UHGV virus genome: UHGV-0030196
DNA from: a virus
Strand: one strand, 5' to 3'
DNA length: 61,145 bases
This document shows positions 28,791 to 30,019 of this stretch, one piece after another (position 1 is the stretch's first letter; each line of letters opens with the position of its first letter). Both the position numbers and the translations under genes were made by a program. The notes below the pieces were generated by a model, which was given only the letters and a program-made list of their open reading frames with translations, made no database searches and was not told the DNA's origin.

Positions 28791-28807
28791 TGTTAGAAAT
28801 TTAATTT
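28791..28807. promoter_or_regulatory. Operator-like motif TGTTAGAAATTTAATTT
   Basis: Identical 17-mer at 52011..52027. Confidence 0.5.
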
Positions 28808-29834
28808 ACGAATCCATCAAGCGGCTATTAGCCCCCACAGACACGCCGCCACGGCGCAGATACCGCATAAGTGTTTCCGGTTTCTTCCAGGTTCCTTCCT
28901 GCATGATCTCCACCATAGACACCTGCTTTTCAGCCATATCGATAGCGGCCCCGACACGAGCACTATGCCCGGTCCACGTCCGGTATCTCCCTTTGTTTGG
29001 CGTGGCATCTCTTTTATTCAGCAACACCCAGGCGTCGCTGAATATTTTCTCCATTGCAGGTGCAGTAAGGGGAGTTGTCGTAATCCTGGCCTTATTGCTA
29101 CGGTGTATCGGCGGGAACAGCACCGCGTCAGGATGTTCACGAAGCCCGGAAACATCCAGCCAGTCATTCAGCACTGCGGTAGTGCGACGGGAAAGCACCT
29201 TATCAAGCCCGGCGGCGGTCGTTATTGTCTTCGTGTGTGAAATATGTAGCGTGACAGTGTCACCTGTTTGGTCCAGATCTCCTACACGAATACGCGAGAT
29301 TTCAGACATTCGCATCAGCGTATTGTATGCAACGAAGAGGAAAGCCCGGTTACGCAGGTCCACCAGCCGTTCTGACCTGGACAACAGGACGTCGAGAAGT
29401 TTCAGATCGTCCCACCGCAGCGGTATAGCCTGGCCTGTTCGTTCGCCTTTTTCCGTTGCCGCTTCGCGCCGGATGCGCCGCATAGCCAGAGAAACACTTT
29501 TATCATCCGAAAGTGGCGGAAGGCCACAATGCGAAAGCAGCATGTTAAGCATGGCGTAGTGCTTATCAATGGTGGTCGAAGCCAGATCAGCATCATGCAG
29601 CTGAAGAAAATACTCGCGGGCCATCTCTGGTGAGATCGGGAACCAGGCGAGCTGGCGAGCGTGGCACCATCGCGCCCAGGAGTGAAACACTAACCGGAGA
29701 TCGCGCAAAGTATTCGGCGCGTAAGCCCCCTGGTCATTCATGAACCGCATAAAGTTTTCTGCGGCCTCCTGGTACTCTTTGCCAATGTTGCGCAGAAAAC
29801 CACCGGAGCTGCCAGAGATAATTAATTCACTCAT
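28806..29834 (-). CDS. dre: Cre-family tyrosine site-specific recombinase (Dre-like)
   Basis: Colinear with P1 Cre from memory (WFP, SLAMRRIRRE, HSARVGAA.DMA blocks); 342 aa vs 343; adjacent lox-like site. Confidence 0.85.
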   Translation of the reverse strand: MSELIISGSSGGFLRNIGKEYQEAAENFMRFMNDQGAYAPNTLRDLRLVFHSWARWCHARQLAWFPISPEMAREYFLQLHDADLASTTIDKHYAMLNMLLSHCGLPPLSDDKSVSLAMRRIRREAATEKGERTGQAIPLRWDDLKLLDVLLSRSERLVDLRNRAFLFVAYNTLMRMSEISRIRVGDLDQTGDTVTLHISHTKTITTAAGLDKVLSRRTTAVLNDWLDVSGLREHPDAVLFPPIHRSNKARITTTPLTAPAMEKIFSDAWVLLNKRDATPNKGRYRTWTGHSARVGAAIDMAEKQVSMVEIMQEGTWKKPETLMRYLRRGGVSVGANSRLMDS

Positions 29835-29985
29835 GAAACTATTTAACCTCTATATACAGATGACGCTACGCGAAAAATATAAAAATGACAGGGTAGCTAT
29901 AAGTTAATTTTCAAAATTCAAGCCTTTGATTCGAGGCACGTATTTTTAGTGATGTCAACACTGATCATCTACCCATGATTATAGC

Positions 29986-30019
29986 CTAACTTTAAATAAT
30001 GCCAATTATTTAAAGTTAG
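29986..30019. other. rox: lox-type recombination site: perfect 15-bp inverted arms around 4-bp core GCCA (rox-like)
   Basis: cTAACTTTAAATAAT-GCCA-ATTATTTAAAGTTAg; inner 32 bp matches D6 rox as recalled; 152 bp upstream of the recombinase. Confidence 0.8.

Follow-up and report, generated by a model that had tools for sequence, protein, structure and literature searches.

The window analysed here is a stretch of 61,145 nucleotides from the virus genome UHGV-0030196, numbered along one strand. Positions 28,806 to 30,019 carry a gene for a tyrosine recombinase and, upstream of it, a short inverted repeat, which together correspond to the Dre/rox site-specific recombination system of phage D6. On the other side of the site lie a divergently oriented c1-like repressor gene and the packaging genes pacB and pacA. 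The resulting gene order dut-orf-orf-dre-rox-c1-pacB-pacA is common to the window and D6. We consider it very likely that the module is the Dre/rox system of a D6-like plasmid prophage (phage-plasmid), and none of the observations speaks against this identification. The coordinates of the features are listed in Table 1.

Table 1. Features of the dre-rox region and further genes of the window.
Feature	Position	Strand	Basis or remark
dre, Cre-type tyrosine recombinase, 342 aa, ATG start	28806..29834	-	ORF call
Shine-Dalgarno-like GAGG, 12 nt ahead of the dre ATG	29847..29850	-	direct reading
Perfect TTGACA in the dre leader, without a recognisable -10	29953..29958	-	kept even in Panto-type relatives
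-10 hexamer TATAAT of the putative dre promoter	29978..29983	-	3 bp outside the dre-proximal rox arm
Perfect palindrome of 34 bp, arms 29986-30000 and 30005-30019, gap GCCA	29986..30019	.	
rox, canonical 32-bp Dre target: 14-bp arm TAACTTTAAATAAT, 4-bp asymmetric core GCCA, 14-bp arm	29987..30018	+	
ATGCCAAT, 8-bp equivalent of the loxP spacer, presumptive crossover region	29999..30006	+	numbering from PMC4777119
-35 hexamer TTGGCA of the putative dre promoter	30000..30005	-	rox centre, crossover positions 2-7
Hypervariable segment abutting rox, c1 side	30020..30143	.	diversity profile
c1-like prophage repressor, 345 aa, divergent neighbour of dre across rox	30220..31257	+	synteny with D6 c1
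pacB	31329..32837	-	D6 synteny; 12/502 aa differ from D6
pacA	32837..34201	-	D6 synteny; 17/454 aa differ from D6
Two Ead/Ea22-like proteins	14830..15537; 18989..19654		in segments without D6 counterpart
DUF551 protein	20361..21245		in segment without D6 counterpart
461-aa ORF, no Pfam match	24889..26274	-	in segment without D6 counterpart

The recombinase encoded in the window and Dre from D6 are identical in 342/342 residues (AAV84949.1 of AY753669; D6_118 of MF356679). The corresponding genes differ at 33 nucleotides, 31 of which are third codon positions; all 33 differences are synonymous and none is non-synonymous. When the region 28700..30200 was compared to phage records by megablast, the matches were confined to three D6 records. 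The original prediction had described the recombinase as colinear with Cre from phage P1 and had proposed an alignment to both Dre and Cre. This alignment yields 100% identity to Dre and 41% identity to Cre (across 322 aa, BLASTP), and the colinearity is confirmed by phmmer, where the best matches among solved structures are all Cre (Dre 22-341 aligned with Cre 21-340, E = 5e-69). No structure of Dre itself was matched by sequence among the solved structures. Pfam assigns the protein to PF00589 (5.3e-17), while the N-terminal SAM-like domain PF02899 scores 21.6 bits, just under the cut-off of 22.3. The catalytic set is complete (R175, K202, H290, R293, W316, Y325); it aligns with Cre R173, K201, H289, R292, W315, and Y324 and is invariant in an alignment of six sequences. 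Five of these six residues are given in PMC4777119, and K202 is added here via the alignment to Cre K201.

The full 32-bp target TAACTTTAAATAATGCCAATTATTTAAAGTTA is found at 29987..30018 and matches base for base the misc_recomb feature which is annotated in GenBank entry AY753669 as 'region of crossover (rox) site for Dre recombinase'. Both the identity of the inner 32 bp with D6 rox and the distance of 152 bp from this site to the dre ATG had thus been correctly predicted; the distance is 151 bp when measured from the 34-bp palindrome in which rox is embedded. That palindrome has 15-nt arms which are 100% complementary and a 4-nt gap. No other perfect inverted repeat with a short gap is as long in the window: the runner-up has arms of 11 nt, and the longest in 30 shuffled sequences has arms of 12 nt. 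The original prediction had taken the whole palindrome, with 15-bp arms around GCCA, as a perfect lox-type site. The palindrome exists, but its 15th pair is located outside of rox and is not found in D6, which carries T in place of G30019 and thus has 14-nt arms. In the relatives described below, the flanking base on the c1 side is C or A, following the haplotype of the flank. The pair C29986/G30019 is therefore a flank allele. We rejected 15-nt arms as a meaningful extension of rox, since D6 does without the additional pair and a 1-in-4 chance suffices to explain it. With up to three mismatches allowed, the rox pattern occurs a single time in the window and is absent from 100 shuffled sequences; further rox half-sites, arm-type sites, or accessory sites were not found in the window. 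According to PMC4777119, two inverted repeats of 14 bp flank an asymmetric spacer of 4 bp in rox, and the crossover region is probably the equivalent of the 8-bp loxP spacer, with cleavage proposed at positions 1-2 and 7-8 by analogy with Cre rather than from mapping.

A scan of viral contigs retrieved 36 related loci, 35 of which have upstream sequence. Together with the window and D6, 33 viral-contig loci form a set of 35 sequences which is referred to as Dre-type. A rox-like site is located 151-153 bp 5' of the recombinase ATG in 35/35 loci with upstream sequence; the spacing is exactly 152 bp in D6 and in 30 of the 35 loci, and 151-153 bp in the remaining five. The site is identical to rox in 20 cases, and nine others carry a sole A-to-G change at position 9 of the distal arm. 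The Shine-Dalgarno-like GAGG is kept throughout the Dre-type relatives; only L035 deviates from it, with AAGG. Changed rox cores occur in a few loci, namely L021, L031, and L035. The site reads ATCCCCAT in L021 (protein 99% identical to Dre), ACTCCAAT in L031 (89%), and ATGCTAAT in L035 (70%), and it was located ~150-185 nt before the recombinase ATG in these variant loci. The core of L031 is changed at position 2, a position which has been tied to incompatibility with wild-type rox (PMC4777119). More remote are L037 and L038, with proteins 55-56% identical to Dre and the site TAACTTTATATAAT GTCA GTTATATAAAGTTA 151 bp upstream, both arms of which carry an A-to-T change in mirrored position.

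Sequence conservation around the site was assessed by a column-wise diversity profile. Blastn was less suited, as its gapped alignments run through the variable stretch of 110 bp next to rox, so that the ends of high-scoring segment pairs did not show the junction. In the profile, rox and the next 8 bp, which include the adjacent -10 hexamer, stand out as an island with a mean pairwise identity of 97-98% between variable flanks. On the dre side, identity dips to 0.77. On the c1 side, ~110 bp are at 0.40-0.79 (segment 30020..30143), compared to 0.97-0.98 for rox and 0.95-0.99 for the region upstream of c1. The recombinase is likewise well kept: the protein of the window is common to nine loci although 24-39 synonymous differences separate their genes. 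Among 26 near-identical dre alleles, 78 polymorphic codons are synonymous only versus 19 which change the amino acid, corresponding to a dN/dS of ~0.08 per site. Judged from these comparisons, purifying selection on Dre and rox is strong.

The similarity to D6 is not restricted to the module. The window is colinear with D6 from D6 coordinate 61500 through 91159/1 to 31890, with 82% of the window covered at 87-98% sequence identity (local blastn) and several insertions or replacements along the alignment. The origin of the D6 sequence (91159/1) coincides with rox. The window is a 61-kb fragment which does not contain the repA/stbAB region of D6. The dre-rox module occurs on ~150 plasmids from PLSDB, mostly from Escherichia, Salmonella, and Shigella, with a best identity of 99.3%; when a 25-kb sample of the window is compared, the most similar plasmids span 84-89% of it at ~97% identity. 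Of 5,426 complete E. coli genomes, 132 contain the module, at 135 places in total, and 132 of these places are located on plasmids of ~90 kb. The other three places are chromosomal, which could be explained by integrated copies or by assembly artefacts. D6-like plasmid prophages are a described group (e.g., PMC6799933). Because the window is colinear with D6 and the module is carried by plasmids of its relatives, the assignment of the element to the D6 branch of P1-like phages, which the original prediction had made, is supported for the window as a whole.

Since the window encodes Dre itself and carries rox, Cre-type recombination is considered to be the mechanism. Dre-dependent recombination by the identical protein on the identical 32-bp site is documented (PMC4777119, PMC4957104). 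By analogy with Cre, two Dre monomers would bind to the two 14-bp arms of each rox, and two rox sites would synapse as a tetramer. Strands would then be exchanged in two steps via a Holliday junction within ATGCCAAT, the direction of the site being set by the asymmetric core GCCA.

In P1, Cre/lox resolves dimers, which ensures stable inheritance, and circularises terminally redundant DNA; Cre is named 'cyclization recombinase' in the P1 record. By this analogy, the module of the window probably has the same two jobs. Resolution of plasmid dimers would allow for faithful segregation of the low-copy prophage, and terminally redundant phage DNA would be circularised after infection. With only ~3-4 kb between rox and the packaging genes, the layout fits to the role in cyclisation. 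Within the window, GATC is most densely clustered in the 5' third of pacA (33752..33886, five sites in ~135 bp), ~3.8 kb from rox, and this cluster is a candidate for the pac site. It is no more than a candidate, since an array of hexamers as in P1 was not found: there is no 200-bp stretch of the window with at least five TGATCA/G hexamers, which weighs against the proposed roles. As to its practical use, the module serves as an anchor: it identifies the window as part of a D6-like phage-plasmid and shows where the genome origin is conventionally set.

A promoter-like sequence extends across the edge of rox on the dre strand. The hexamers TTGGCA and TATAAT, separated by 16 nt, score 11/12 in a promoter scan and form the only site of at least 11/12 on the two strands of the window. 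This promoter site recurs in 31/33 related Dre-type loci and in D6, and it is weakened to 9-10/12 in L021, L031, and L035. In every Dre-type locus it is the sole site of at least 9/12 on the dre strand within 260 nt before the ATG. The expected number of sites of at least 11/12 in the 385-bp spacer on the dre strand is ~0.003. TATAAT is invariant in 35/35 Dre-type sequences, while the bases around it vary, both the three before it (GGC, GTA, TCA, or GGT) and the six after it (CATGGG, CTCCAG, AATGAT, or GTAGAG). The loci of Panto type, named after the Panto/pox system discussed below, have a different promoter of 11/12 which likewise overlaps their site, with the -10 hexamer inside the distal arm. 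Our hypothesis is that dre may be transcribed from this promoter, with its -35 hexamer in the centre of rox, and that rox-bound Dre would repress its own synthesis. An invariant TATAAT combined with a -35 hexamer embedded in rox suggests such repression. We tentatively propose, as a possibility that falls some way short of being probable, that the rox core doubles as the -35 hexamer of the main dre promoter and allows for autoregulation by Dre, and that rox is also a fixed exchange junction towards the immunity and packaging side. If this is true, the rox core is constrained twice, by recombination and by transcription, and Dre occupancy sets the level of Dre, which bears on how Dre is kept low in lysogens.

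Several observations weigh against a promoter in rox. Shuffled sequences contain 0.82 sites of at least 11/12 per window (122 kb, both strands) compared to the one observed, so that the genome-wide count is unremarkable. Both rox and its flanks are rich in A and T, and such DNA imitates promoter hexamers; conservation of TTGGCA may reflect the recombination core alone. The leader, which would be ~137 nt long, has other conserved blocks nearer to the ATG, including TTGACA (29958..29953), and these could serve other promoters from which dre is read. All three cre promoters annotated in P1 are located downstream of lox, without overlap. Finally, the spacer variants L021 and L031 persist with a weak -35 hexamer and without visible compensation. 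The promoter-like sequence may thus be a by-product of AT-richness and core conservation, with dre being read from the 152-bp leader or by read-through and without autoregulation. We regard this as a serious possibility, close to but below an even chance. It has to cope with the fact that TATAAT lies outside of the 32 bp that are sufficient for recombination and yet is invariant in all Dre-type sequences while its neighbours vary, with the absence of any other site of at least 9/12 on the dre strand before the ATG, and with the Panto-type relatives, which retain a promoter that overlaps the site in another register.

A scan of species-representative genomes for overlap between promoter and site returned nine loci, all of them Cre-type or remote and none Dre-type. 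A cryptic promoter in rox is not reported in the searchable literature, which did not include the primary Dre paper; as far as can be judged from this literature, a promoter in rox may be a new detail. Next to the TTGACA of the leader, 5 nt upstream, the window has a GATC (29963..29966) which belongs to the haplotype of the window and is not found in D6; it recalls the Dam-regulated cre promoters of P1.

The two sides of rox differ in their divergence. On the c1 side, the first 60 nt of the window and D6 show 38% sequence identity, which is at chance level, and the sequences diverge at the first base outside of rox. On the dre side, sequence identity remains at 90% or more within the main group of relatives. 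When distal and proximal flanks are assigned to the haplotypes W and D, all four distal/proximal combinations are found (W/W 5, D/D 9, W/D 4, D/W 4), and the distal flank of the window type also adjoins a dre allele which is only 89% identical (L030). The repressor C1 differs from that of D6 at 36/345 positions, which are spread along the protein, compared to none in Dre. The C1-like repressor may thus be of a different immunity type than that of D6; it has no Pfam match. This pattern of haplotypes and divergence would be the expected product of rox exchange between co-resident relatives combined with homologous crossover elsewhere. A local replacement is also possible because homology resumes after ~110 bp. 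The mosaic junction at the edge of rox may be a new detail.

These observations could be taken further, to the view that the module mainly drives the exchange of segments between co-resident D6-like elements, and not plasmid maintenance or cyclisation. Unrelated c1-side haplotypes which begin at the first base outside of rox, their four combinations, the flank shared with L030, and a C1 which is 10% diverged from D6 beside an identical Dre all agree with it. However, the unrelated stretch comprises only ~110 bp before homology resumes, so that homologous recombination or a local replacement would suffice. Exchange is better viewed as a side effect of a maintenance site, and we consider mosaicism unlikely as the main function.

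The variable segment of the window is enclosed by the two halves of an inverted repeat, AAATTTAGGAAATT (30020-30033) and AATTTTCTAAATTT (30107-30120), and a terminator-like hairpin on the plus strand (30066..30091) is located within it. The motif AATTTYCTAAATTT, which brackets the segment, was considered as a C1 operator; this is not claimed because the motif is not dispersed through the window.

Two more readings of the module as a whole have been considered. As Pfam recognises only the general Phage_integrase family and three of the 135 E. coli places are chromosomal, the module might be a conventional phage integrase with an attP for chromosomal integration. The plasmid location of all other places, the simple symmetric lox-type site (14-4-14) without arm-type repeats, the colinearity of the element with the plasmid prophage D6, and the activity of the identical Dre protein, which needs no accessory factors to recombine a pair of identical rox sites in bacteria and in animal cells (PMC4777119, PMC4957104), make this very improbable. 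We give next to no credence to an inactive relic which is passively carried by the plasmid, even though the activity of this very element is predicted from sequence, given that the 33 differences from the D6 gene are all synonymous, that the population dN/dS is ~0.08, that the catalytic residues are all intact, that the site is perfectly kept amid hypervariable flanks, and that the identical protein and site are active in published experiments.

Apart from the module, 18% of the window has no match in D6. The segments without D6 counterpart are 10312-11372, 14063-15776, 18361-20856, 21061-24357, and 24836-25999; they contain the Ead/Ea22-like, DUF551, and 461-aa proteins from Table 1. The small ORF downstream of dre (28388..28744) has no Pfam match, and an Rfam scan of 28000..32000 returned only a match to HgcC at chance level (E = 0.4). 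Five tRNA genes, for Met, Ser(tga), Thr, Tyr, and Arg(tct), are encoded on the minus strand of the window (36120..37381). ARAGORN detects four in D6, likewise on the minus strand, namely for Met, Ser, Thr, and Asn (L039 6084..7850). GenBank entry MF356679 places three D6 tRNAs on the plus strand and omits tRNA-Met.

The original prediction had also pointed to a ready-made heterospecific recombination pair. The system is indeed heterospecific to Cre/loxP, but this has been known since Sauer & McDermott 2004 (as cited in PMC4777119), and Dre/rox has been a standard heterospecific tool since then. In this respect, the finding is already known. Cre/loxP and Dre/rox show no cross-recombination at normal expression levels (PMC4777119), while Dre also accepts pox and several further lox-like sites as substrates (PMC4957104, PMC10250229). 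As protein and site are identical to the published ones, the window does not add a recombination tool. What is gained are comparative data on how strongly Dre and rox are conserved in nature and on natural variants of the rox core, one of which (L031) is altered at a position linked to heterotypy. If dre is indeed transcribed from a promoter in rox, rox may show promoter activity in those bacterial constructs which have a -10-like sequence downstream of it.

Among known systems, the module is closest to Dre/rox of D6 itself, with which it shares the 342 residues of the protein, the 32-bp rox, the spacing of 152 bp, and the gene order. It differs from D6 by the 33 synonymous nucleotides, by the flanking base on the c1 side (G in the window, T in D6), and by the ~110 bp next to rox, which are unrelated.

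Cre/loxP of P1 resembles the module in its fold family, in ~320 colinear residues which include the catalytic ones, in having a lox-type site just upstream of the recombinase gene, and in being located near c1 and pac. The presumed roles, dimer resolution and cyclisation, are also alike. In contrast, loxP has the structure 13-8-13 while rox has 14-4-14. The gap between lox and cre is ~435 bp and contains cra and three promoters which are clear of lox, whereas the corresponding gap in the window is 152 bp and its best promoter overlaps rox.

With respect to this overlap, a comparison can be made to the res sites of Tn3 and gamma-delta with tnpR, where the resolution sites overlap the promoter of the recombinase gene and the bound recombinase represses its own gene. 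These are serine resolvases with res regions composed of multiple subsites, unlike Dre. Such autoregulation is not known for Dre.

Panto from Pantoea sp. aB is 52% identical to Dre, and its site pox is one base off rox in each repeat (PMC4957104). Dre and Panto each recombine the site of the other (PMC4957104). The pairs Panto/pox and Dre/rox differ in the spacer and, as judged from L037 and L038, in the register of the overlapping promoter. These two loci look like the Panto/pox type, based on percent identity and on the published description of the site rather than on a direct alignment. The module works like Cre/loxP, and the next closest system is Panto/pox.

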